A DNA stretch of 34,489 nt from a virus (Duplodnaviria > Heunggongvirae > Uroviricota > Caudoviricetes): positions 1-34,489 of IMG/VR virus record IMGVR_UViG_2671180921_000023; one strand, written 5' to 3'. Below the pieces are notes generated by a model. That model saw only the letters and a list, made by a program, of their open reading frames with translations, was not told the DNA's origin and ran no database searches. Of this stretch, positions 740-29,639 are shown piece after piece. Positions within the stretch are counted from its first letter, which is position 1; every line of letters starts with the position of its first letter. Position numbers and translations under genes: made by a program.

Positions 740-955
740 AGCGCTTGCTCCTTTTTCGGAGAGGCGCTAACCTGTCACTTGCTTAGGGTAGACGGTTAGG
801 GCCTCGGTTAAACAGAGATGTTTTCCGGGGCCTTTCCACATCCGGCCTTCGGGTATTCCCTCCGACCATCAGCCGAAAGGCACCCGCGCGTAATTTACCG
901 TTTTCTGAGTTAATTCTCCAAATAAAATTCCAGAGTCAAAAACAGATACAGGCGA

Positions 956-1213
956 TCACATTACCGGAAACGGCAGTGACAACTGCGCATCACCCCGGTG
1001 AGACGCAGGCAGGCTTTGCCACGGAATATCCTGTGAAGTGCTGTCATAACGTTTAACAGTGATTTTGTCGAAACTCTCCAGCGTCGAGAAGGAGAGACTG
1101 CATTCCGGGTTGTTGCACTGGCAGAGTTTCCAGCGGACAGTTCCGGTATCGTTCGCTGCGCGACTGGTGCGGGTGCGGGTGCTCGCACCACAAAAAGGAC
1201 ACGGAAAAGACAC
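956..1213 (-). CDS. ogr: Ogr/Delta-type zinc-finger late gene transcriptional activator
   Basis: C4 zinc-finger pattern FPCPFCG ... CQCNNPEC; GTG start at 1213 preceded by AAGGAGG RBS. The longer ATG-initiated ORF (to 1285) would overlap the gpD 3' end. Sits downstream of D as in P2. Confidence 0.7.
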   Translation of the reverse strand: MSFPCPFCGASTRTRTSRAANDTGTVRWKLCQCNNPECSLSFSTLESFDKITVKRYDSTSQDIPWQSLPASHRGDAQLSLPFPVM

Positions 1214-1263
1214 GACGAAGACCTCCTTTTTCGTGAAGGTGAATCGTCGTGATTTTATTCCGG

Positions 1264-2397
1264 TTATTCCTGTTGCGCTATCCATTCAGGAATTTTTAAT
1301 TCCATCTCAAGCCGCGTGGTGAAGCCGCTGTCGTCGATGTTGTGCTCCACCTTCGCCAGCACCCAGTCTTCCGCGTCGATGTCGCTCTTGAAACCGGATA
1401 CCGTGCCGCGCATTTCGGGGTACAGGTCGGGGCGACCGCGTGCCAGTGTGATGGAGAACTCAGCCGCACCGCGCTGTAGCTGCTGCCACTTTGCCGCAGC
1501 GGCACGGCGTGCGGCCTCCTCGTTTTTGAAGGTTTGGCGCATGACGTACACATTGCCGTCTGCGCCCTCCATGTAATCCCCCTCGCGGCTGCTGCTTTTC
1601 TCTTTTTTTGTTTTTTGGGCAGAACCACGTTTCTTCACGCTGACTTTTTTCTTTTTGCCATAGTCCAGGTCCAGCCAGTAAGCGCGTACCCCCGTGTACG
1701 CCTGCCGGTCTGCAATGCGGAAGTGATGGCTGTCACCGCTGCTGCGGGTGATGGCGAATGAGGGCAGCGGCTTTCCGCTGGCGCTCACCCCCTGTCCGGG
1801 CACGATGAAAAGCAGTGCGCCGTTCTTGACGGTGGCTATGGCTCCCAGCATGTCTGCCATACGCGTGAGAAACGAGATGTCACTTTCCTCCGTCTGGTCG
1901 GCGTGGTCGATTTCCACCCCTGCCAGCGAAGCGCTGATTTGCGCTTTCAGCCCGTAACGATACGCGATGGCAGAAACAACCTGCCCCACCGTCACGTCAT
2001 GCCAGGACACTTCACGCTTCACGTTGAACTCCTGGCGGAAGTCTGCGCTGCTGGCCGTAATGGTGAGTCTGTCCGGCGGTCCCTCGTGTGTCACCTCGTC
2101 AACGATGAACGCTCCCTTGTCCGTCAGCGCCTCACCTTTCCAGCCCAGCGCCAGCCCCAGCTTCTGCCCGCGCTTCGGGAGACGCACGCCGCCGTCGCTG
2201 TCGTCAATCGTGAGGGTTAACTGGTCTGCTTCAAATCCCCGGTTGTCGGTCATTGCCAGCGAGATGACCCGTCGGGTTAACGCCTCGTTTTCCTCTTTTT
2301 TTCCGGTTTCCGCGTTGTCAGTCGTGACGGAAAAATCCGGTATCTTCACGCACTCTGCCAGCCCGGCGAGGTATCCGTTAATGCCCGAAAGGTTCAT
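1264..2397 (-). CDS. D: Tail protein gpD (late control gene D protein)
   Basis: Matches P2 gpD motifs (RVISLAMTDNRGFE, ADRQAYTGVRAYWLD, WQQLQRGAA). Start chosen at ATG 2397 (MNLSG); upstream ATG at 2430 is also possible. Confidence 0.85.
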   Translation of the reverse strand: MNLSGINGYLAGLAECVKIPDFSVTTDNAETGKKEENEALTRRVISLAMTDNRGFEADQLTLTIDDSDGGVRLPKRGQKLGLALGWKGEALTDKGAFIVDEVTHEGPPDRLTITASSADFRQEFNVKREVSWHDVTVGQVVSAIAYRYGLKAQISASLAGVEIDHADQTEESDISFLTRMADMLGAIATVKNGALLFIVPGQGVSASGKPLPSFAITRSSGDSHHFRIADRQAYTGVRAYWLDLDYGKKKKVSVKKRGSAQKTKKEKSSSREGDYMEGADGNVYVMRQTFKNEEAARRAAAAKWQQLQRGAAEFSITLARGRPDLYPEMRGTVSGFKSDIDAEDWVLAKVEHNIDDSGFTTRLEMELKIPEWIAQQE

Positions 2398-2560
2398 CCC
2401 GCTTTCTCCGTCTGTGTCTTCGTCCCGCAAATCATTTCACACACGCGAAATACACCGCGAGCCGCGCATGTTGTAGGAGAGCGGCGAGAAGGGGCGGCGC
2501 GTGAATGTCGGGGTGTTTTTCGGGAGGATAGTGCCACAGAAAAAACACCAGGAGGTGCTC
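2398..2560. promoter_or_regulatory. Divergent intergenic region between gpD and FI; presumed late promoters
   Basis: 163-bp gap between divergently oriented late operons. No clear Ogr-type TGT-N12-ACA site found by eye. Confidence 0.35.
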
Positions 2561-3742
2561 ATGAGTGAAACACGCTTTCACGGTGCGCGCGTCAAAGAAA
2601 ACACCGACCTCGTGACCGCGATTAATGACATTGATTCCAGTGTCATCGGTATCGTGGCCACGGCGGACGATGCAGACAGCGACGCGTTCCCGTTAAACAG
2701 GCCCGTACTGATCACCCGCGTGGTGAATGTGCTGGGTAAGGCAGGCACAACAGGCACGCTGTACAAAACGCTCAAGGCGATTTCCGACCAGACCAGCCCG
2801 AAGGTTATTGTGGTGCGTGTGGCAGAAGCCGGAGAGGAAGGTGAGACACAGGACCAGCTTGTCATCGGTGGCTCGCAGGCTGACGGCAGCTACACGGGCA
2901 TGTATGCCCTGCTGGTTGCCGAACAGGATGAGAGCATTGGTTACCGCCCGCGCATTCTGGCCGCGCCCGGCCTTGATACCGAAGCCGTCACATCTGCCCT
3001 GTGCGTCATTGCGGACAAGCTCCGCGCCTTTGTGTACGCCGGATGTAACGGCTGTGACACGATGGCGGAGGCAATCACCTACCGCGCGAATTTCTCTGCG
3101 CGTGAGCTGATGCTGCTGTGGCCTGACTTCATTGCCTACAACCCGGTGAGCGGAAATAACGAAACGTTTCCGGCAGCGGCGTATGCGTGCGGGTTGCGTG
3201 CGCGGATTGACAGTGAACAGGGCTGGCACAAGTCTCTGTCCAACGTGGCGCTGAAAAATGTGCTCGGTATGTCGCAGCAGGTGTTCTGGTCGTTGCAGGC
3301 CGAAGACAGTGATGCGAACAGCCTGAACAACAAGGAAATCACCACGATTATTCGCCGTAACGGCTTCCGCTTCTGGGGGAACCGTACTGCCGAAACCAGC
3401 GACTACATCTTTGAGGTGTACACGCGCACAGCGCAGATTCTGGCAGATACCATCGCTGAGGCGCAGTTCGAAACCATTGACGAACCGCTGACCCCGGCGA
3501 ACGTGAAGGACGTGATTAGCGCCATCCGCGCAAAACTCAATGCCCTGGTCACCGCCGGAAAACTTATCGGTGCGGAGTGCTGGTATGACGTGCTGGACAA
3601 CGGCACGACGGATTTACGTCAGGGGCGCGTGCGTATCCGCTACAAGTACACACCAGTGCCGCCGATGGAAGACCTGACGCTGTACCAGACCTTCACGGAT
3701 GAGTATTTCGACTCCGCTTTTGCAACGCTGGGAGGTGCGTAA
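2561..3742 (+). CDS. FI: Contractile tail sheath protein gpFI
   Basis: 393 aa from ATG 2561 with AGGAGG RBS; resembles P2 FI (FPLNRPVLITRV, tail sheath family). Confidence 0.9.
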   Translation: MSETRFHGARVKENTDLVTAINDIDSSVIGIVATADDADSDAFPLNRPVLITRVVNVLGKAGTTGTLYKTLKAISDQTSPKVIVVRVAEAGEEGETQDQLVIGGSQADGSYTGMYALLVAEQDESIGYRPRILAAPGLDTEAVTSALCVIADKLRAFVYAGCNGCDTMAEAITYRANFSARELMLLWPDFIAYNPVSGNNETFPAAAYACGLRARIDSEQGWHKSLSNVALKNVLGMSQQVFWSLQAEDSDANSLNNKEITTIIRRNGFRFWGNRTAETSDYIFEVYTRTAQILADTIAEAQFETIDEPLTPANVKDVISAIRAKLNALVTAGKLIGAECWYDVLDNGTTDLRQGRVRIRYKYTPVPPMEDLTLYQTFTDEYFDSAFATLGGA

Positions 3743-4258
3743 ATGGCTGTACCACGTTACGTTCGCCAGTTCACGCTGTTTGTGAACGGCAAAAACAAAA
3801 TCGGCACGGTGACAGGCGTCACTCTGCCTAAACTGACCCGAAAAACCGAAGCCTATCGCGGTGGCGGGATGCTGGGTGCGGTGCATATTGACCTCGGACT
3901 GGATGATGGCGCACTGGATGCCTCGTTCACCACCGGTGGGGTTGAAAAAGAGCTGCTCCAGGAATACGCCACTGAAATTAACGAAGTGGCGCTGCGCTTT
4001 GTGGGTGAGCTGTTCACCGATGGTGAGGAAAGTCAGCTCCTTGAGGTGGAAATGCGCGGGCGTATCACGGAAATCGACCGTGGCGAAACCAAACAGGGCG
4101 ACACCACACAGTACACCTTCGCCGTCAAAAACACCTACTACAAGGAGTCGGTGGATGACAGCGATGTGACAGAAATCGACCTGCTGAACTTCATCTACAA
4201 AAAAGACGGCCAGAACGTCTTTGGTGACCGCGTGAGTTCGGCGCTCGGTCTGAACTGA
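3743..4258 (+). CDS. FII: Tail tube protein gpFII
   Basis: 171 aa; ATG immediately after the FI stop, GGAGG RBS; P2 FII-like. Confidence 0.9.
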   Translation: MAVPRYVRQFTLFVNGKNKIGTVTGVTLPKLTRKTEAYRGGGMLGAVHIDLGLDDGALDASFTTGGVEKELLQEYATEINEVALRFVGELFTDGEESQLLEVEMRGRITEIDRGETKQGDTTQYTFAVKNTYYKESVDDSDVTEIDLLNFIYKKDGQNVFGDRVSSALGLN

Positions 4259-4304
4259 CAGCATTAACAGGGCGGCACATTGTGCCGCCACAGGAGAAAG
4301 AAAA

Positions 4305-4721
4305 ATGGCAGCAAAGAAAGATGACATCATGAACAGCGAAATCGTCGCAGGTGACACCACCACTGAAAACATCGATGTGGCAGAGGAAAACACTGCGGAT
4401 AACGCAGAAGCCGCAGAGGAAAAAACGGGGGTGAAGTTATCCTGCCCGGTGGTGCGTGGCGAACGCGTTATTGACTACGTGGAGATTGGCGAGGAAATCC
4501 GTCAGGCAGGCTCGTTGCGCGGGCTGTCGCTGATTGAGGTGCTGAACCTCAAAACGGACCCGATGATGACGCTGCTTTCGCGCGTGACCGCACCACGCCT
4601 GAAACTGGCAGAAATTCAGTCACTGTCCACCGGTGATTTCGTGGCGCTGGCGACTATGGCTGCGAATTTTTTTGCTCCCACGGAGTCTGCGAAACCGTCC
4701 GTGGCGGTGATGGAAGCGTAA
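4305..4721 (+). CDS. E: Tail assembly chaperone gpE
   Basis: 138 aa; gpE-like core (VVRGERVIDYVEIGEEIRQAGSLRGLSL); position between FII and the tape measure. Confidence 0.8.
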   Translation: MAAKKDDIMNSEIVAGDTTTENIDVAEENTADNAEAAEEKTGVKLSCPVVRGERVIDYVEIGEEIRQAGSLRGLSLIEVLNLKTDPMMTLLSRVTAPRLKLAEIQSLSTGDFVALATMAANFFAPTESAKPSVAVMEA

Positions 4722-4885
4722 TCACGCTGGCGAAGTTCGACAACGTTGAAGAACTGGTCGCTGATATAGCAGTCGTGTTTAACTGGTCGCCCGGCGAGAT
4801 ATTCTCAATGCCTCTCGTCGAGGTGATGAGCTGGCGTGAGCGGGCGGCGCAACGTAGCGGAGTCCGCAACAGTGAAATCCCTTGA
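4305..4885 (+). CDS. E': gpE+E' extended chaperone from a programmed -1 frameshift (slip at the T7G run 4667-4674)
   Basis: Seven T then G at 4667-4674 inside the E frame. The -1 frame stays open for 70 codons to TGA at 4883-4885, overlapping the start of T, as in P2-family E/E'. Confidence 0.6.
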
Positions 4886-7800
4886 TATTCGTGTCAGCTT
4901 TGGCGCAATTGACCGGCTGACACGCCCGACCGAAAACGCCCGCCGTCAGGTGGGCGCTCTCACTGAATCCCTTCAGAAGACGCAGGACAACATACAGGCG
5001 CTCGACAGGCAGTCGAAGGTGTTCGAACGTGCCGCCGGAAATCTCAGTAAATACCGCGAACAGATTGCCCGTGCGGAGCAGAGGCTCGCCGGGCTGCGAA
5101 AGGCAGAGCAGAACGGTAACATCCTCTCCGAAAAGCAGCGCGAAACGCTGGCGGCACTCTCCGCGCGGCTTGAGCGCCTGAACGAGCTGCGCACGCGCGA
5201 ACGCGAAAAACTTCAGGCGGCGGCAGGGGAAATGCGCAAACACGGCATTCTGCTTTCCGGCAGCAGCCGCACCATTGAAAGTGCCGTTCGCCGTACACAG
5301 CAGTACAACGAGCTGCTCGAGCGCGAACGGCAGGCACTGGCTCGCGTGACGCAGGCACAGAGCCGCTATGAGGCCGCGAAGGCACAGGCGGAAAAACTGC
5401 GCAACACAGGGGCTGTGGCGATGGCGGCGGGTACAGGCGGCCTGTATGCGGCGCAGCGTATGATGGCTCCGGCGATGGAGTCCGAACAGCACGGTGCGGT
5501 CATCGCAGCCGGTTCGGGGGAAGGCGCACAGGATGGCGCACGTTACACCCACATTATTCGTAACATACAGGCTGACGGTCTCGCTGATTTTGCCGGTGCT
5601 GCGGAGGCTGTGAGTGCGGTACGCAGTACGCTCGGCGCGCTGGGCGACACCGGCGACCGGGAACTGGAGCGCATCAGCCGTCGTGCGCTGGATATGCGGA
5701 CCGTCTTTGGTGTTGATGTGCCACAGGGCATTCAGGCCGCTGCCATCATGATGAAGAACGGGCTGGCTGCCAGCAGTGACGAGGCCACCAACCTGATGAC
5801 GGCAGGGATGCAGCGCATGTCCGCTGAAATGCGCGATGAACTGCCGGAAATTCTGCACGAGTATTCCACCCACTTCCGCAACATGGGTTTCACCGGCAGA
5901 GAGACAATGAGCCTGCTGGTTGAGATGGCAAAGCAGGGCAAGTTTGCGCTGGATAAAACCGGCGATGCCGTGAAGGAGTTCAGCATCCGGGGTTCGGATA
6001 TGTCGAAATCCAGTGTCTCAGCGTATGAGACACTCGGCCTGAATGCCGAACGGGTGTCTGCTGCCATTGCACAGGGAGGCAGCACCGCACGTCAGGCGAT
6101 GCAGGTGACCGCCCGTGCACTGCTGGCCATCCGTGACCCGGCAGAGCGGGCGAACACGGCCATTGCGCTGTTCGGCACACCCGTTGAAGACCTCTCCGTT
6201 GACCAGATCCCGCAGTTCTTAAAGGCGCTGGCCGATGTCCGTGACAACCTGGGTGATGTCAGCGGCGTGGCAGAGCGCATGGGGCAGACGCTGCGCGGTA
6301 ATCTTTCCGGCGATGTTCAGGCGCTGAGTGGCGCGTTCTCAGGGCTACGCACGGACATCTTCGGTACTGTGACCGAGGATTTGCGCGGGCTGGTTCAGAC
6401 GGTGAGCGCGTGGGTGACCCGGATGCGCGAATGGGTCGGAGAGCATCAGGCGCTGGTCAGAGTCCTGGTGCTGACCGGCGGGAGTGTTCTGGCGCTGTCT
6501 TCCACGTTCGGTGCGCTGTCACTGACGCTCGGGCTGATTGCGGGGCCGCTGGCAAAACTGCAACTGGGACTGGGGTTGCTGACGGGGGGCGGCGGCATTG
6601 GTGGGGCTGTCCGGCTTGTGTCCGCGCTGGCGCTGCGCCTGACGGGATTGTCTTCCCTGTGGGGACTGGTCACAGGGGCGGTGTCGGTACTGGGGGGCGC
6701 ACTGGGGGCGCTGTTCAGTCCGGTCGGGCTGATTGTTGCCGCCCTGGTGGGCGGCGCGGTTCTGGTGTGGAAATACTGGGATCAGATCAGCGCGTTTTTT
6801 TCCGGCTTTTTTGCCGGAGTGTGGGAGGCGCTGCAACCGCTGCGGGAAGCCTTTGCATCGCTGGCTCCGGTGTTCGGGCTGATTGGCGACGGCATCAAAG
6901 CCGTGTGGGAGTGGTTCACCCGCCTGCTTGAACCTGCGAACGCCTCAAAAGAGACGCTCGACAAATGCACCAGAGCCGGGGAGTTGTTCGGCAAAACGCT
7001 GGGGTGGGTCATTCAGAACATTGTGCTGGGGCCGCTGACGCTGCTCCTTGAAGGCCTCGGTACTGTGCTGAAATGGCTGGGTGTCATTCCTGACGGCATC
7101 AAAAATGCACAGAAGGAGACGCAAAAACTTCAGGAGAGCGCCGCACAGCAAAACGAACAAAAAGCGCCGGTTGCGTGGGAGTGGGATCCCGCACAGAAAA
7201 AAATGGTGCAGAAGTCGTGGGCGTGGTCATCAGATGCAGCGGAAAACAACGGCGACAATAAACCCGCAATACCTGCCCCTGCTGTTCCCGGAGAGGTGAA
7301 GGGAACGGCAGGCAATCCGGTCGGCAATCCCGGCAGCAAATCCCCGCTGGATGAGGCATGGTTCCGGCAGGGGATACAGAAAACCGCCAGCAATACAGGC
7401 GGGCTTCTTGAGGAAACAAAAAAACGTACTGGCCCCGGCGATATTGTTTTCAAAAATCTGCCCGGACCCGAAATCATTCACGGCGAGTGGAAAGCGCCGC
7501 AGGTTATCCGGACAGTGCAGGCGGTATCGGCGGGCGGAGGACTGGCGGATGTGCTGACAACGCTCTGGCAGAAACTCACCGGAAGACAGACTGTTTCGCC
7601 CGTTCCGGCAGTGAATGTGCCAGCACCGGTGGTGAATGTGGCGCGTCAGGTGTCCGCACTGCCGCAGCCGCGTAACGTGACGGCAGGCATGACAGGTGCG
7701 GTAATGGCTTCCGCTCCCGTCGCGGAGGCTATCCGGCCCCCGTTGCGACCGGAACCGGCCGGAAGGGAAGCTGCGCCACAGCCGCAGGCGGCTGCGTTTT

Positions 7801-7940
7801 CCGGTGAGATACATGTGCATCTGCACAACGTCAACACACAGAATCCGCGCGAACTGGCAAAACTGGTTGGAGAGGCTGTCCGCGAAGAGATGCGCAGACA
7901 GGCACGTACAGGCATGAACAGCTTCCGCGACAGGGACTAA
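4836..7940 (+). CDS. T: Tail tape measure protein gpT
   Basis: 1034-aa ORF with coiled-coil N-terminus, Gly/Ala-rich hydrophobic core, Pro-rich C-terminus. True start may be the GTG at 4872 (GGAG RBS) instead of ATG 4836. Confidence 0.85.
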   Translation: MSGRRNVAESATVKSLDIRVSFGAIDRLTRPTENARRQVGALTESLQKTQDNIQALDRQSKVFERAAGNLSKYREQIARAEQRLAGLRKAEQNGNILSEKQRETLAALSARLERLNELRTREREKLQAAAGEMRKHGILLSGSSRTIESAVRRTQQYNELLERERQALARVTQAQSRYEAAKAQAEKLRNTGAVAMAAGTGGLYAAQRMMAPAMESEQHGAVIAAGSGEGAQDGARYTHIIRNIQADGLADFAGAAEAVSAVRSTLGALGDTGDRELERISRRALDMRTVFGVDVPQGIQAAAIMMKNGLAASSDEATNLMTAGMQRMSAEMRDELPEILHEYSTHFRNMGFTGRETMSLLVEMAKQGKFALDKTGDAVKEFSIRGSDMSKSSVSAYETLGLNAERVSAAIAQGGSTARQAMQVTARALLAIRDPAERANTAIALFGTPVEDLSVDQIPQFLKALADVRDNLGDVSGVAERMGQTLRGNLSGDVQALSGAFSGLRTDIFGTVTEDLRGLVQTVSAWVTRMREWVGEHQALVRVLVLTGGSVLALSSTFGALSLTLGLIAGPLAKLQLGLGLLTGGGGIGGAVRLVSALALRLTGLSSLWGLVTGAVSVLGGALGALFSPVGLIVAALVGGAVLVWKYWDQISAFFSGFFAGVWEALQPLREAFASLAPVFGLIGDGIKAVWEWFTRLLEPANASKETLDKCTRAGELFGKTLGWVIQNIVLGPLTLLLEGLGTVLKWLGVIPDGIKNAQKETQKLQESAAQQNEQKAPVAWEWDPAQKKMVQKSWAWSSDAAENNGDNKPAIPAPAVPGEVKGTAGNPVGNPGSKSPLDEAWFRQGIQKTASNTGGLLEETKKRTGPGDIVFKNLPGPEIIHGEWKAPQVIRTVQAVSAGGGLADVLTTLWQKLTGRQTVSPVPAVNVPAPVVNVARQVSALPQPRNVTAGMTGAVMASAPVAEAIRPPLRPEPAGREAAPQPQAAAFSGEIHVHLHNVNTQNPRELAKLVGEAVREEMRRQARTGMNSFRDRD

Positions 7941-7953
7941 AGGAGACGCAATT

Positions 7954-8421
7954 ATGATGATGATTTTCGGCATGTTTGTGTTTGAACTGAAAACGCTTCC
8001 GCATCAGCAGATCCAGCAGAGCAAAACATGGCGACATGTGAAAAATGAGCGAATCAACCGTTCTGCGGCCTGGCAGTATATCGGTGCGGGTGATGACCAG
8101 ATCACGTTGTCCGGCATGTTGTATCCCGAAATTACCGGCGGGGAGGTGTCACTGACACAGCTGAACACTCAGGCCTACACCGGATGCCCCTGGCCGCTGA
8201 TTGATGGCACAGGGCAGATTTACGGAATGTACGTGATTACGGGGTTACAGACCACCCGTTCTGAACTGGATCGCTACGGGAAGGCGAAAAAAATTGAGTT
8301 CTCCATCAGCTTTCAGCGGTGTGATGAGGATATGAGGGAGAAACTTCAGTCTGCTTCTGCAGGCGAGCTGCTCAACAGTATGAAGAGCAGGGCTGCATCT
8401 GTTCTCAATTCAGTCTTGTGA
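7954..8421 (+). CDS. U: Tail protein gpU
   Basis: 155 aa directly after T with AAGGAG RBS; P2 gpU-like. Confidence 0.85.
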   Translation: MMMIFGMFVFELKTLPHQQIQQSKTWRHVKNERINRSAAWQYIGAGDDQITLSGMLYPEITGGEVSLTQLNTQAYTGCPWPLIDGTGQIYGMYVITGLQTTRSELDRYGKAKKIEFSISFQRCDEDMREKLQSASAGELLNSMKSRAASVLNSVL

Positions 8422-8425
8422 CCCC

Positions 8426-8459
8426 CAAAAAAGCCCACCGTCCAGTCCTGACGGCGGGC
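8426..8459 (-). terminator. Hairpin terminator in the convergent U/G intergenic region; T-run lies on the minus strand
   Basis: Stem cccaccgtc/gacggcggg with one mismatch; followed by a T-run on the minus strand (A-run 8426-8432 on plus). Confidence 0.5.
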
Positions 8460-8501
8460 ATACTGAACACCCAGCTAGTGTGTCTGTAAAGTGAGATTAT
8501 A

Positions 8502-9146
8502 TCACTGAATCGTACTTGTGAAGGTTTGCGTATCGGTGTTTGTATTTTCGTCGGGAATGTCAGGCCAGATAATCGCCTCAACGTCCGCTTTGTTGGCGAT
8601 GCTTGTGAAATCCAGTGCGTGCAGTGCGTCAACGTAGTCAAGCCACGCATCCAGTGATGCCTGCTCGTTTTCCGTCAGTGAACGGCCAAGCAGCAATTTT
8701 GTCTGGCTGATAACAAGCTGCTGGCGTGCGCTGTTGAGTAACGAATCACGCTTGGTTACCGCCGCTGTGACTGCGGCACTGCGCTGTGCTTCCGTATCCG
8801 TCACCCAGGATGTGCCGTTCCACTTCTGATATTCACCATCCGGGGATAACCAGGTGACATTTTCCGGTAATGGGCCAAGTTCAGAAATAAATAACGCATC
8901 TCCTGTGTCCACGTCATAAACTGTTTTACCCCGATGGTCTTCAACGAGATGCCACGATGCCTCATCACTGTTGAAAACAGCCACGAAGCCTGCCGGAATA
9001 ACTGGCGGTGCAATATCGGTACTGTTTGCAGGCAGACCTGTATGAGGTGGAATGTGTGCATCACCTTCACCAATAAATTCATTGGTTCCTGGCAGCAGAT
9101 TATAAATTTTTATGGTCTGTGGTTGTTCACTCATTCTGAATGCCAT
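8502..9146 (-). CDS. G: Tail fibre assembly protein (gpG/Tfa family)
   Basis: 214 aa downstream of H, Tfa-like. Start ATG overlaps the H stop (TAATG coupling); alternative start at 9134. Confidence 0.8.
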
Positions 9147-10852
9147 TATGCAAGCCTCACAATATAGTTAAATGCGATGTTTTTGACGGTGTTTTCCGCG
9201 TTGCCATAAGCGGCAATGGTAATGGTGTGTGTGTGCGAACCAATAGCGAGCGTATGTGCATGCGCACCTATTGCTACTGTGTGAGCATGAGCTCCTGCGC
9301 TTAATACGCGATTACTTGCTGTCTTGCTTGTGTTAGTTGCATGCATTCCACCACCGGTACCGGGAGTTTCTGCGTATGCTGAAGTATTGTTGTAAGCAAA
9401 GTTGTGTGTATGTGCTCCGGTGTTATTTGTGGATTTAGTACCGTAATCAAACGATGACGTGGTTTTCGTTCCCAAATCCGTACTGGATGCGCTGGCGCTG
9501 TGGGTATGCGATTTAATGCCATCCTGTTCCTGAGACAATACGGCACGACCACTGGCGGGCTTGCCCTTAATCGTCCAGCCACGCATATCAGGGATCACGC
9601 CTGACGGATAAGCGACTGCAAGTTTCGGGTAGGCAGATTTGTCAAAAGTCTGCCCCTGCATCAGGGCATAACCAGACGGAACGGTATCCGATGGCCACGG
9701 GATTGGTGCGCCAGGCGGATAAAACTGCTCTGATGGCGTATAGAGTGAATAAACTGTACCGTCCGTTAACCCTTCCGGCTTATTAGCAGAATATGCTGGT
9801 GACGTATGAATCGTTACGCTGGCATTACTGGTATAATCCCATTGAATATTTACACCAGTCGCATAATTTCCGATTGCAACGTAAATATCGTAAGTATCAC
9901 CAGATGTATTGACCCAGGCAAAATTTGTAAACCCTGTCGATGTGCGCTGCCATAAAGCACCAGTAATCCCCTTCGGATTACCATTACCTGCACGCAAAAC
10001 AAGTTCAGATATACCTGCCTGTTGAGGTGAACCGACGTTATATCCAGCCCCACCAATCAACGTAATTGAAACAACAGAACTCTCCTGTGGCATGGTTACC
10101 GTTGCTAATTTGAACCAACCAGCACCACCGCTGAATGACATTGTTGTTGAGTTAAGCGTACCAATATCTTTCGGCGTCAGTGTTATATCCGCTGAAAGCG
10201 CCTTACCATTCACCTTACGGGCAGAAGGTACCCGACCATTCGCATTGTCATTAGCTGCTTTCACTGCTTTCGGCGTTGCAGCCTGCGTTTCAGACACGCT
10301 GTTAGTGTCGCTACTGAGTTGAACAAAGCCTTTTGCGGTCAGCGAGGCGTCCGGGTGACGGCGGGACTGCTCGTGCTCTGCAAGTTTGTCATCCACATAG
10401 TCCTGCGTTGCCATAATGGTTGTGCTGTCCACTGACAGGCTTATGGCATTAACGTCACTGATGATAATAATCATGCGACAGGTCATGGCGCGCCCGGAGC
10501 CTTCCGTGAGCAGGGGCTTGTAGCTTTCCGCCATGCTGGCCACCGCAATCAGGCTACCGGTACTGTCATACAGTCCCAGCTCACGCATCCAGAAGCCGCC
10601 GACTTCCGGCGGAATAACCAGTTCCGCAATCACCTGATTCGGCGCTTTGCTGTTCTGTGTAATTTTATTCAGCGTCCCGCGCCAGACTTCATGGATCAGG
10701 GCGGTCTGTGAGGCTGATGGTTCCGGGAGATTTCCATTACCATCTCCCACGGCCATATGTGTGATGCTGACTTTCTGCCCCGATGTTGTGGTGGCGGCGG
10801 CCAGTTTTGCCGCACCGGCAGTGGTGATCACAGTTTTAAATCTGATGCTCAT
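9146..10852 (-). CDS. H: Tail fibre protein gpH
   Basis: 568 aa; conserved N-terminal fibre attachment region, Ser/Thr/Gly-rich shaft, C-terminal HxH repeats ([25 protein letters not shown]). Confidence 0.85.
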
Positions 10853-10858
10853 ACTGTC

Positions 10859-11392
10859 TTATTCCTGCGGATAAATCGTAATAACGTCACCGTCATACAC
10901 AACGCCGCCGGTATACAGGTATCCCTGAATATCCTGCATGATATTCAGGCCAACCAGATGACGGCTCACCGGGCGGGCATCGGCAATGAGTCTTTCCATT
11001 TCGGAGTACATTTCCTCTGTGATCCCCACATCCAGTACACCGATGTCCAGCCGGAAAGTCCCTGGCGTATCGCCGGTTTCCCACCATTCCGTCACGTTAA
11101 TGACATAGCCAAAGGGTTCAACCACACGCCTGATGGCGCTGATGGTTCCCTTATGGCGGTGGATTGCCCGGGCATCACGGATCACCTGGCGCTTTGTTTC
11201 TTCCGTCCAGTCACGATCCCACCTGTCCACGGACAGCGCCCACGCCAGATAAGGCAGCAGGGCCACCGGGCAGGTGTCAGGATCCCAGAGCTGGTTAAGG
11301 CTGACAGGTAATGCTGACAGCCGGGCCGTTCCCCGTTCCACGCAGCGCATGAAATCGCTGGCTGAAGGGGGGAGCAGTGACGGTTCACTCAT
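10859..11392 (-). CDS. I: Baseplate/tail protein gpI
   Basis: P2 gpI-like; start chosen at MSEPSLL (11392), overlapping the J 3' end by 8 nt. The ORF-track start at 11455 is less likely. Confidence 0.8.
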   Translation of the reverse strand: MSEPSLLPPSASDFMRCVERGTARLSALPVSLNQLWDPDTCPVALLPYLAWALSVDRWDRDWTEETKRQVIRDARAIHRHKGTISAIRRVVEPFGYVINVTEWWETGDTPGTFRLDIGVLDVGITEEMYSEMERLIADARPVSRHLVGLNIMQDIQGYLYTGGVVYDGDVITIYPQE

Positions 11393-12281
11393 TGGTTCCC
11401 CCTGCGCTGACCGTGAACGATGTGCAGTACGCTGACTGCACATCGCTGATAACAATATTCTGTGCGGGACTGGTCAGTTCCACGCGCTGAACGCCCTGAA
11501 CATGCAGCGCGGCCATGATGGCGGAGAGCGCCACATCGCGACCGATTTTGCCCTGTTCAGCAAGCCAGGCTTTCAGGTTATTTCTGGCAGCATTCAGGAT
11601 GGGTTCCGACTCCGGCCCCGGATAAAAGTAAAGCCGGGCATCAATCTGATACCGGATGATTTCTGCGCTCTGCACCGTCAGGCGGTCACCGACCGGGCGA
11701 ACGTCTTCGGCATTCAGCGCATTTCTGACCGTCGTCAGGAGTGCTTCGGTCGCCGTACCGTCGCCTTCCGTGGACAGCACCGCCACCACCACTTCCGCCG
11801 GTGCGGGGCTGGTAGCGCGTGCGTCCGCCACCTGACCGCTGGCACTGCGGGCAAAATATTCATACGCCCCGGTGGGACCGGCCACGCTGAGGCCATCAAA
11901 TGCAGACTGCGCACGCAGCCGCAGGGCTGTGTCGCTTTCCATGACGGCCTCCGCGGTGTCCGTGGCAGGTGTGATGACCAGTCGCGCGGTGTTCATGTTG
12001 GCGGCGAGGTTATCCAGGTCGTCACCTGTGGAATGGCTCAGCATACAGGCCGCCGCCCCTTCATTAATTCGCTGGCGAAGCAGCAACTCACGCAGTGCAA
12101 ATGCCTGAGCGATGACCGTGAGCGGTTCGGACTCCAGCGCCATGGCTGACCGGACGGCAGCCTGCTGTGTCTGTGGAAATGACGTAATGATGTCTTCTTT
12201 TACCTCCGCCAGGATGACTTCAAAATCCGGCGTTTCAATAATCTGTGGTGTCGGCAGTTCCGACAGGTCAACGGCTGGCAT
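11385..12281 (-). CDS. J: Baseplate assembly protein gpJ
   Basis: 298 aa, P2 gpJ-like N-terminus (MPAVDLSELPTPQIIE); overlaps the W stop. Confidence 0.85.
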   Translation of the reverse strand: MPAVDLSELPTPQIIETPDFEVILAEVKEDIITSFPQTQQAAVRSAMALESEPLTVIAQAFALRELLLRQRINEGAAACMLSHSTGDDLDNLAANMNTARLVITPATDTAEAVMESDTALRLRAQSAFDGLSVAGPTGAYEYFARSASGQVADARATSPAPAEVVVAVLSTEGDGTATEALLTTVRNALNAEDVRPVGDRLTVQSAEIIRYQIDARLYFYPGPESEPILNAARNNLKAWLAEQGKIGRDVALSAIMAALHVQGVQRVELTSPAQNIVISDVQSAYCTSFTVSAGGTNE

Positions 12282-12633
12282 TGTCGCTCCTGAGTGTCAG
12301 TGTGTTCTGTACGGTTTCCAGGCTTTCTGTCAGTGTGCCGGTGAGGGTGATAACGGCTTTTCCGCCCGCCTCCCACTGAATGTCAACGGCATTCAGGGCG
12401 ATGCGTGGCTCCCACTGTGTCAGGGCAATCACCACGGCACTCATGCACTGAAGGCGGGTTGTGGCATTCATCGGTGCATCCAGCAAATCCGGCAGCAGGC
12501 TGCCGTATTCCCGGCGCATCACCCGGCTGGCGAGCGGTGTCAGCAGAATATCCCTCACGCTGTTCCACAGATGGTCCGTATCGCTGAGCGTGCCGGTGGC
12601 CTCGGGGTTCATCCCCAGAAAACGTGCACTCAC
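12268..12633 (-). CDS. W: Baseplate wedge protein gpW (GPW/gp25 family)
   Basis: 121 aa with the conserved SRVMRREYGSLLPDLLD motif. Confidence 0.85.
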   Translation of the reverse strand: MSARFLGMNPEATGTLSDTDHLWNSVRDILLTPLASRVMRREYGSLLPDLLDAPMNATTRLQCMSAVVIALTQWEPRIALNAVDIQWEAGGKAVITLTGTLTESLETVQNTLTLRSDNASR

Positions 12634-13211
12634 TGCGGGCCTCCTGTGGTGTCGCCGCCGCTCTTCACGCCACTGTGTTTGTGCGTGTGCAGCGTCACAC
12701 CGTTGGAGGTGAAATCACCGCCGCTGTGCGAGATATTGCCACTCAGGGTTCCGCCTTCTGTCACCTCAAACGTTGCCGCTTTCAGATGGTTTGTGCAGGT
12801 GACGGTGGGGGTGTCCAGCGTCACGCCCGTTCCGGCCTGAATGGTGGCTGTTCTGATTCCGCTGGCGCTCAGCGCGCCTGCGTCCGCATCGTAGCGGAAC
12901 ACCGCGCCGTCAGGCGCTGTGACCACGATTTCCGTCAGGCTGCTACCGGGCGCAGGATGTTCGCTGCTCCAGAGACTGCCGATGACGGTGGCGGTTGCGG
13001 GGTCGCCATTGATACAGGCAATCATGACCTGTTCGCCCACGGCAGGCGGCAGCCATATGCTGAACGCGCCCGCGCGTGGTGTGTTCCAGCGCAGCCAGTC
13101 GGTTTCCAGCTCTCCGCTGCGCACACGAACGCGCCACGTGGTTTCGTCTACGGCAAAAATCACGCCCGTGCGGATGATGTTTGCAAGCAGTCGCATGATT
13201 TCCGCTGTCAT
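12630..13211 (-). CDS. V: Baseplate spike protein gpV
   Basis: 193 aa, P2 gpV-like (TDWLRW, Gly-rich C-terminus); start coupled to the S stop. Confidence 0.85.
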   Translation of the reverse strand: MTAEIMRLLANIIRTGVIFAVDETTWRVRVRSGELETDWLRWNTPRAGAFSIWLPPAVGEQVMIACINGDPATATVIGSLWSSEHPAPGSSLTEIVVTAPDGAVFRYDADAGALSASGIRTATIQAGTGVTLDTPTVTCTNHLKAATFEVTEGGTLSGNISHSGGDFTSNGVTLHTHKHSGVKSGGDTTGGPQ

Positions 13212-24407: not shown

Positions 24408-24719
24408 TTATTCGGGGAATAAGGCCCTGATGTTTGCGGCCATCTGGCTGGGTGTCTGCACCTCTGGCGCAACCTGTACTTTGGGGCTTTCCGCCCTGAG
24501 CTGTGTCACGGGTAACGGCTCATCGTCAGCCCATGCAGCCAGCCGGTAAGCCTCTGCCGGATTCGTCTTCAGAAGTGCCAGCCCGGCCAGAAAAGCCACA
24601 CGTTGCCCGCTTTTGCGGGCTTCCGGTGTAAGGCTGTCCAGCCAGGCACATGCTTCGTTTTCGTTCTTGACTGCGGCTGGCTTCAGATAGAAACTTATCC
24701 GCCTGGTTGATGTTGTCAT
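24408..24719 (-). CDS. parR: ParR/StbB-like partition adaptor
   Basis: 103 aa, immediately downstream of parM; N-terminal RISFYLKPAAVKNE ... AFLAGLALL resembles plasmid R1 ParR. Confidence 0.65.
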   Translation of the reverse strand: MTTSTRRISFYLKPAAVKNENEACAWLDSLTPEARKSGQRVAFLAGLALLKTNPAEAYRLAAWADDEPLPVTQLRAESPKVQVAPEVQTPSQMAANIRALFPE

Positions 24720-24723
24720 TGGT

Positions 24724-25683
24724 TCACTCCCTGTTCATGTCATGGAGTCCATTAACCAGGGCAAACTGTGGCTCCGGTGTTGTGTGAATGTTTGCGTTGA
24801 GGCCGTAAGCGTCATGTACCGCCGGAGCCACAATCTCCGCCCCTCCACCGACAATCATCACCCGACCGTATCCCGAAAAGCCCGCCAGTGCGCGGATCAC
24901 GCGTTGTTTCAGTGTTTCTTCCTTTTCACGAATAACCGCCATCAGGCTGGCGTAATGCGCGTCATTGTGGATGTGCTGGCGCAGCCAGGCTTCATCGTGG
25001 CGATGTTCGATAATGGTATTGGCGATGTGGTGACTGGTACGCATACCGTTAGTGGCCATCACCGACAGTACGGCATCGGTCATCAGTGAAACGCCTACGT
25101 GTGGATCGCAAAATACCTGGCTGATGCCTGCCAGTTGCCCCTGAACCTTTGCCACATCCAGCGTGGTTCCGCCTAAATCCACAATCAGCAGGGATTCAAA
25201 CGGACTCATGTCAGCCAGTGCTTTAAAACCAGCCGGAATGGATTCAGGCATAACCCGTACGTTACGGATAGTGAATGCTTTTCCGTTCTGGTACGCCACC
25301 GGGCGCATGACGTTTGCTTTTTTGCGGTTGATGTTGGCCATGTCCGGCTGTGCGTTTGTGTCGAAATACTCGCTCAGTGGCAGGGTGACAACCACATCCA
25401 CTTCCTGTGGTGTGATGCCTGATTTGACCAGCGCGTGATGAATGGCAATGACATTCACATCGCTGTACTGGTATTGCGTGTCGGTCGTCTGGACAAAGCG
25501 ATCGCTGACCGGATCAAAACCATAGCGCACGCCATCAAGCATGTAGTTCGCGGGCTGCGTGCCACCGAACGGCGCAGACCATTCCGACTTGAAGCTGTTC
25601 GGGCTGATGGCGTTGCGGCGTTCGCCGTTCTCAGTCCATGCCAGCTTGATGTTGGTGGAGCCGTCATCGATACAAATTTTCAT
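24724..25683 (-). CDS. parM: ParM/StbA actin-like segregation ATPase
   Basis: 319 aa with ParM phosphate-binding motifs: IDDGSTNIKL, FTIRNVRVMPESIPAG, LLIVDLGGTTLDV, VMIVGGGAE. Co-linear with R1 ParM. Confidence 0.85.
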   Translation of the reverse strand: MKICIDDGSTNIKLAWTENGERRNAISPNSFKSEWSAPFGGTQPANYMLDGVRYGFDPVSDRFVQTTDTQYQYSDVNVIAIHHALVKSGITPQEVDVVVTLPLSEYFDTNAQPDMANINRKKANVMRPVAYQNGKAFTIRNVRVMPESIPAGFKALADMSPFESLLIVDLGGTTLDVAKVQGQLAGISQVFCDPHVGVSLMTDAVLSVMATNGMRTSHHIANTIIEHRHDEAWLRQHIHNDAHYASLMAVIREKEETLKQRVIRALAGFSGYGRVMIVGGGAEIVAPAVHDAYGLNANIHTTPEPQFALVNGLHDMNRE

Positions 25684-29319: not shown

Positions 29320-29496
29320 GATGTGGCCTCTTTGGTTGTAAGTTTTGAAAACTCACCATCCAGAGCTGCGAAACTGTGGGTGGCGAGACGTACGAGGTTC
29401 GCAGTACCGGCAACCAAAGAACCCGGCCCGACCGAAGTCGGCCCCGTACGTCCCGCCATAATTCGTGTGCGAAAAAGACGTGGCAATACAGTACGC

Positions 29497-29520
29497 ACAA
29501 AAAAACCGCTGGCGCGGTTG
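29497..29520 (-). terminator. Putative intrinsic terminator/attenuator inside the early operon
   Basis: Minus-strand hairpin aaccgc-gcca-gcggtt followed by 7 T; lies in a 320-bp non-coding gap. Confidence 0.35.
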
Positions 29521-29639
29521 TGTGCTTTGGTTGTCAGCAGGCTGCGAAACCCGGCATCCGTTTTATGAGATGCAGCGGAAATGTAACCTGACTGATTGCG
29601 GCATGGCAAGCGGTTTTTTTGTGTGTACATAGTGGTTAC

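Follow-up and report, generated by a model that had tools for sequence, protein, structure and literature searches.

In phage P2 (NC_001895), the genes V W J I H G, fun(Z), FI FII E T U D ogr follow one another, and all of them except fun(Z) point in the same direction. Why, then, does a P2-like prophage carry FI through U, from the tail sheath to gpU, on the opposite strand from the genes on either side, and how would it transcribe the late control gene D and the late activator gene ogr? The prophage is IMG/VR record IMGVR_UViG_2671180921_000023, whose 34,489 nucleotides we analyzed as a whole (the window). We propose that it belongs to a lineage with one fixed, in-place inversion of FI-U, and that D and ogr are likely transcribed from a divergent promoter that shares the activator site of P_F, the promoter of the FI-U operon. 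We give this reading as a whole a probability of about 80%.

The canonical order, with FI through ogr co-directional and 3' of G, does not hold in the window: FI through U lie on the plus strand, while D, ogr and G through V lie on the minus strand. Pfam matches, the map of open reading frames and the annotated P2 reference all confirm this inversion, which had been noticed in the initial annotation, and the boundaries given there are exact. With its start codon at 2397, D is separated from FI, which starts at 2561, by a divergent D/FI spacer of 163 bp, and the U stop at 8421 faces the G stop at 8502 across a convergent spacer of 80 bp (8422-8501). The position of Z/fun was likewise correctly described as empty, as the U/G spacer contains a hairpin terminator alone.

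The block might have been joined backwards in one assembled sequence, so we looked for the two junctions in other assemblies. By megablast, ten complete E. coli genomes are colinear with about 90% of window positions 900-9200, at 91-97% identity, and each of the ten includes the D/FI junction. (In E. coli strain 135, for instance, the annotation reads ogr on the minus strand, D on the minus strand, sheath to U on the plus strand, and fiber and baseplate genes on the minus strand.) Positions 8377-8786 had no match in complete E. coli RefSeq genomes, so the exact U/G junction was not found there, because those ten prophages carry a different fiber module. This left the right junction unconfirmed at first, and nothing else was found that would favor an artefact. 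An exact-sequence look-up of the window's G protein returned at least 24 contigs, and the seven that we fetched are 99.3-100% identical to window 8200-8800, U/G junction included. The longest of these seven independent assemblies are colinear with the window for up to 9.5 kb, and one was built from raw reads of run ERR12723413. The flipped order is thus retained across both junctions in independent assemblies, and it recurs in 90 distinct related loci. These observations refute an assembly artefact, to which we assign practically no chance.

To place the arrangement among relatives, we gathered the surroundings of gpD homologues in one representative genome per species, in IMG/VR viral contigs (four queries) and in phage records, and we located the tail genes on every locus by tblastn. 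After de-duplication, there were 316 distinct loci. FI, FII and U run opposite to D in 90 of them, whose gpD proteins are 56-99% identical to the window's; 222 have the canonical order, with gpD proteins that are 33-53% identical; and the remainder are one mixed locus (a Klebsiella record with a split sheath gene) and three loci that could not be classified. At gpD identities to the window of 56% or more, every surveyed locus is flipped, P88 and phiSM among them. Flipped prophages occur in Escherichia, Salmonella, Citrobacter, Klebsiella, Edwardsiella, Trabulsiella and several Providencia species. Wherever J shares the contig, it has the same direction as D in both classes, and therefore FI-U alone changed orientation. 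The arrangement is therefore no anomaly of this one prophage. Its orientation is standard across the whole lineage, an outcome that the initial annotation had itself named as a refutation: the flip is an old trait that is fixed in the P88/Xuanwuvirus-like phages, and it is ordinary for its kind.

The flipped genomes are monophyletic in neighbor-joining trees both of a gene outside the block, gpD, and of two genes inside it, FI and U; the window's gpD, FI and U all fall within this clade. Identity to P2 is also alike inside the block (FI 47%, FII 43%, U 47%) and outside it (D 48%, V 46%, W 43%). Given the monophyly and the even divergence from P2, the simplest reading is a single ancestral in-place inversion, which would have turned exactly FI-FII-E/E'-T-U, between the fiber end of the V..G genes and D. 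The inversion is fixed, as every surveyed member has it and the sequences show no sign of continued switching. The initial annotation had offered three alternatives: an ancestral inversion with breakpoints between G and FI and between U and D, a lineage-specific architecture, or an assembly artefact. The first two are the same thing and both are supported, while the third fell to the independent assemblies, so that its interpretation is partly supported overall.

An inversion in place is not the only way to obtain this order. A foreign FI-U cassette might instead have recombined backwards into an ancestor; the G/FI boundary in P2-like phages is a known hotspot for recombination and morons (PMC3573123), and the fiber module that adjoins it in the window is a mosaic, with 92-93% identity to lambda stf/tfa. 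Against such a replacement, the clade that is monophyletic in the D tree is recovered with FI and with U as well, its internal groupings being similar, and divergence from P2 is equal on the two sides of the boundaries. The dyad of P_F (described below) retains its canonical distance to FI, and one inversion is more parsimonious, so we consider replacement improbable. We find it more improbable still that the block is a programmed invertible segment, kept switching by an invertase of the Hin/Gin/Cin type as in the tail-fiber shufflons of related phages. P88, phiSM and 520873 do have a DNA invertase beside the U end of the block, but in the window, tblastn with the P88 invertase as the query detected no such gene up to 1.5 kb from that end, and only 10 of 70 flipped loci have one at this boundary. 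None of the 90 distinct loci of the clade has the block in the P2 orientation, and the features of the promoter and the terminator at the two flanks are orientation-specific. A repeat search over 800-9300 found no pair joining 2398-2560 with 8422-8501, and in a direct comparison of the two junctions, the longest inverted exact match was 7 nt, which is reached by 63% of shuffles; the short inverted repeats that the initial annotation had suggested seeking are at chance level. In sum, the marks of Hin/Gin/Cin-type systems are lacking: there are no crossover repeats above chance, no invertase gene next to the block in the window, and a single orientation among the clade loci. We also considered an invertase as the cause of the flip and set it aside as uninformative, because only a minority of both classes carry one there (the equivalent position is occupied in 26 of 139 canonical loci). 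The invertase at this boundary is an accessory of the fiber shufflon and no correlate of the flip.

We return to the preferred reading, a single fixed inversion, and to its consequence for D. The initial annotation reasoned that D would need its own late promoter, which is reasonable, and comparative evidence favors a divergent promoter that would use the P_F activator site. Late promoters that depend on Ogr/Delta have a dyad about 55 bp upstream of the start and a -10 element, without a good -35 element, and the form reported for P2-family activator sites is TGT-N12-ACA. There is no exact TGT-N12-ACA in the D/FI spacer. We detected its dyad, TTGTAGGAGAGCGGCGAGAA, by aligning the spacer with those of P88 and phiSM, which revealed a conserved core, and then comparing it with the perfect dyad in the window's O/P spacer, TTGTCGGAGCGTTGCGACAA, with which it agrees at 15 of 20 positions. 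In all 85 analyzable flipped loci, whose D/FI spacers came from the species representatives and from IMG/VR contigs, the dyad is 74-91 bp upstream of FI (mostly 82-88 bp; 80 bp in the window), and the P_F site of P2 is 83 bp upstream of FI. Therefore, the D/FI dyad is the ordinary P_F site, which moved along with the block, and the FI-U operon would have kept its Ogr-dependent promoter through the inversion.

After the flip, the palindromic activator site of P_F would also have faced D. Anchoring the flipped-clade spacers on the dyad showed that an ACAAC half-site is conserved on each side, and that each side also has a -10-like element (A at +45, AT at +48-49, counted from the dyad centre). 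On the D side, the motif in relatives is TGGAATCAT or TGAAA(T/C)CAT at +42..+50, and its counterpart in the window, TGGAATGAT, is offset by one base. We scored these elements with a register-tolerant pattern test that used canonical genomes as the control, which replaced a weight matrix trained on the relatives. On the FI side, 28 of 30 flipped representatives and 56 of 59 canonical ones have the pattern. In contrast, the D-side pattern is present in 26 of 30 flipped but just 2 of 59 canonical representatives (Fisher p = 4e-16), which ties the element to D lying on that side. Furthermore, of all sites in the window, the one centred at 2480.5 alone satisfies the dyad-plus-(-10) test in both directions. 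Its -10-like elements lie at +44..+50 in both directions, the geometry of the mapped P2 sites, and the predicted leaders of FI and D, at about 25 nt, resemble the P_F leader of P2.

P2 itself provides a direct precedent for a two-way site at D/FI, because two of its promoters share one site: the P2 record describes a single activator site (3057-3087) that is common to pO and pP, and its centre is 55.5 bp from each of the mapped starts (3016 and 3127). By analogy, D and ogr would most likely be transcribed from a divergent promoter with the same single activator site as P_F, the centre being about 55 bp from each predicted start. A stronger form of this proposal is that the inversion created a second bidirectional Ogr-dependent late promoter, by placing the palindromic site upstream of D, where a new -10 element evolved, so that the late genes would be expressed from two symmetric two-way regions (O/P and D/FI) and there would be no separate P_V. 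We lean towards this stronger form, by a little over even odds.

Several points weigh against this account. The case for a D promoter, including Ogr binding at the dyad and the predicted transcription starts, is an argument from sequence conservation. The window's D/FI dyad has one mismatch, with AGA for ACA, and 4 of the 30 clade representatives do not have the simple D-side pattern. In the weight matrix from relatives, the FI side of the window is the top match, but its D side ranks sixth with the combined matrix and beyond the top eight with the D-side matrix, because the D-side motif is shifted by one base. (The late-promoter matrix also had secondary matches, with z of about 4.2-4.9, at 29540 on the plus strand, inside a match to the small RNA isrK, and at 8155 on the plus strand, inside U; these are probably due to chance.) As for the inversion, the neighbor-joining trees have no bootstrap values and include few canonical outgroups (the more diverse canonical loci, which came later, were classified but left out of the trees), so a single origin is well supported but not proven.

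The poor fit of the window's D side to the clade matrix could also mean that the inversion is real and lineage-wide but that D and ogr are expressed in another way, from a different promoter (for example, an Ogr-independent one) or by read-through, and not from the P_F site. In P2, ogr has its own promoter 3' of D, and the D-ogr spacer of the window contains TAAAAT. However, a simple consensus scan of 2398-2560 found no sigma-70-like promoter, and this explanation leaves aside the D-side -10-like element, whose spacing from the dyad equals that of the FI-side element and which is specific to the flipped clade. Transcripts reading through from H-G would first meet the terminator at 8433-8459 and would then have to traverse 6 kb of antisense sequence. 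We consider such an alternative route to D unlikely, though less so than the rival origins of the flip discussed above, and we continue to favor a divergent promoter at the shared site.

At the other end of the block, the minus-strand transcript of H and G would end at a GC-rich hairpin in the 80-bp U/G spacer. The hairpin folds with -32.7 kcal/mol on the minus strand (z -2.8) and with -23.5 kcal/mol on the plus strand, where it has no U-tract, so that some FI-U transcripts may run on, antisense, into G and H. Scanning the window with the matrix and with the dyad-plus-(-10) test revealed no P_V-like late promoter near V, and S and V overlap at 13208-13211. Together, these two observations suggest, as a guess, that O to G may be one operon and that the lineage lacks the separate P_V of P2. 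Rfam and tRNA scans found nothing at either junction.

Features of the late region of the window, with positions in the window (a dot marks features without a strand)
Feature	Position	Strand	Basis and remarks
ogr-like late activator	956-1213	-	85 aa; Pfam Ogr_Delta, E 1e-11
gpD (baseplate hub / late control D)	1264-2397	-	Pfam Phage_GPD; outside the inverted block; direction as V..G
D/FI divergent spacer	2398-2560 (163 bp)	.	Proposed bidirectional late promoter region; dyad and two-sided -10-like elements conserved in the clade
Predicted D-promoter -10, AATGAT, within TGGAATGAT (2429-2437)	2431-2436	-	Predicted start near 2424-2427
Ogr-box-like dyad TTGTAGGAGAGCGGCGAGAA	2471-2490 (centre 2480.5)	.	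TGT-N12-AGA; half-sites 2472-2474 and 2487-2489; 80 bp to FI ATG, 83 bp to D ATG
Predicted P_F -10, GATAGT	2527-2532	+	Predicted transcription start near 2536-2540
FI, tail sheath	2561-3742	+	Pfam sheath domains; first gene of the inverted block
FII, tail tube	3743-4258	+	Pfam Phage_tube, E 4e-46
E	4305-4721 (stop)	+	Three-frame translation
E' (-1 frame of E)	Frame ends at 4885; T7 slippery run near 4665	+	PF06528 Phage_P2_GpE
T, tape measure	about 4836-7940 (start 4836 or 4872)	+	Pfam PhageMin_Tail
gpU	7954-8421	+	Pfam Phage_P2_GpU, E 1e-40; last gene of the inverted block
GC-rich hairpin, T-run on minus strand only	8433-8459	-	Terminator scan; predicted intrinsic terminator for the H-G transcript
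G, Caudo_TAP tail-fiber assembly protein (Tfa)	8502-9146	-	Pfam
G, H, I, J, W, V baseplate/fiber genes	8502-13211	-	Pfam, map of open reading frames, tblastn; convergent with U
H, tail fiber	9146-10852	-	Pfam
I, Tail_P2_I	10859-11392	-	Pfam
O/P dyad TTGTCGGAGCGTTGCGACAA	19356-19375	.	Perfect TGT-N12-ACA, mid-spacer; about 77 bp to O ATG, about 75 bp to P ATG

The rest of the window also has the content of a P2-family prophage, according to the map of open reading frames and Pfam scans. The P2-like tail and late gene set is present (FI, FII, E/E', T, U, D, V, W, J, I and the Ogr/Delta activator), all of these homologues except E itself have Pfam matches, and the proteins are 42-75% identical to those of P2 by tblastn. 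E and E' are predicted to be expressed via a -1 frameshift, given the T7 run and the -1 frame that bears PF06528. The window's gpD is 48% identical to D of P2 and 71% identical to D of P88. The ogr-like gene, which lies 3' of D in the same direction, begins with GTG downstream of an AAGGAGG ribosome-binding site and has the length of the annotated ogr of E. coli strain 135; its Ogr/Delta product is of the zinc-finger type. The order on the minus strand from 8502 on is G, H, I, J, W, V, S, R, lysis genes, L, M, N, O, and past O are P and Q on the plus strand, then the replication gene gpA, cox and the integrase.

Some other modules have their own affinities. Positions 8787-9200, which hold the 3' part of H and most of G (Tfa), have 92-93% DNA identity to lambda stf/tfa and to many lambdoid phages; the fiber module is a mosaic exchanged across phage families. 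In the early region, Rfam matches above the gathering score identify a C4 antisense RNA (29376-29463, minus strand, 85 bits) and the Hfq-binding small RNA isrK (29499-29573, minus strand, 65 bits), both overlapping an Ash-family open reading frame. These matches suggest that the P2-like prophage includes an antisense-RNA module of the P1/P7 type, for immunity or anti-repression. Although it bears an integrase, the prophage also has a gene for a ParM actin-like segregation protein (24724-25683, minus strand), followed by a small open reading frame (24408-24719, minus strand); the same pair of ParM and partition protein is annotated in 520873.

Several records of relatives deserve a remark. In P88 (NC_026014.1), an unannotated ogr homologue (59% by tblastn) lies directly 3' of D, at about 1088-1330. 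In phiSM (OR565851.1, 2294-4745), D carries the label "ogr", and the sheath gene the label "late control gene D protein". In 520873 (NC_049344.1), IS100 lies within the sheath gene (31638-34782) and the annotation of D, T, A and int is fragmentary, which makes this record a decayed prophage. A Klebsiella pneumoniae record (CP052639.1, "plasmid unnamed", 22546-25891) has a split sheath gene, whose N-terminal part is inverted, together with D and ogr, relative to the C-terminal part; either the locus underwent a second local inversion or an excised phage genome was misassembled. Finally, a 226-kb contig (NZ_JBQPOM010000071.1) from a Firmicutes assembly labelled Vagococcus sp. contains a prophage of the flipped lineage (gpD 70%, FI 84%), probably due to contamination or a mislabelled assembly.

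As a synteny marker, the flipped FI-U order cleanly identifies a broad P2-family lineage of Enterobacterales prophages, which should aid annotation and comparative work, and it should not be flagged as a misassembly or as a recent rearrangement. The wider interest would be regulatory, in that a new divergent promoter seems to have been gained after an inversion by re-use of a single palindromic activator site. If this is correct, then the D/FI spacer is a natural example of a promoter arising beside a palindromic activator site. The arrangement has been visible in public genome records for years; our literature search (P88, Xuanwuvirus and P2-like gene order), within the library open to it, found no paper that describes the inversion or a promoter for D.

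Among known phages, the window's closest counterparts are those of the genus Xuanwuvirus. The prophage belongs to the P2 family (Peduoviridae), in the lineage that includes P88, phiSM and 520873, and the deposited annotations of these three phages show the identical arrangement of D, flipped FI..U, and fiber and baseplate genes. The proteins of P88 are similar to the window's (gpD is 71% identical and FI is 85% identical), the dyad with its two-sided elements is conserved, and 520873 shares the ParM partition genes. In contrast, these phages have a DNA invertase and a fiber shufflon at the U junction, where the window has its 80-bp spacer and a lambda-like Tfa. The genus threshold of the International Committee on Taxonomy of Viruses is about 70% nucleotide similarity across the genome. 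In a megablast comparison of the tail region, about 16% of an 8.3-kb query aligned to P88, at 78% identity, and because of this low nucleotide similarity, the window probably lies outside Xuanwuvirus in the strict sense, as a different species or genus-level group.

The nearest canonical relatives that we sampled are Salmonella phage SEN8 and other Fels-2-like phages (Felsduovirus), whose gpD is 51% identical. They too have a variable element, an invertase with a shufflon, at the G|FI boundary, but FI..U and D run in one direction as in P2, and there is no -10-like element on the side of the dyad away from FI. P2 (Peduovirus P2) resembles the window in its gene set (V W J I H G, FI FII E/E' T U D ogr), in the -1 frameshift for E', which is predicted in the window, and in having an activator of the Ogr family. 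In P2, G, FI..U and D are co-directional and the F operon ends with D, whereas in the window FI..U are flipped and D-ogr form their own unit. The window also lacks the Z/fun gene of P2 and the gap between S and V that holds the P_V site. The best analogue of the proposed D/FI promoter is the pO/pP pair of P2. According to the annotation of the P2 record, pO and pP were mapped experimentally, while the promoters at D/FI are predicted and serve a gene pair that is not divergent in P2. What the two systems have in common is the single dyad: pO and pP share one, and the D/FI and O/P spacers of the window each have one central dyad, 75-83 bp from the start codons on either side.

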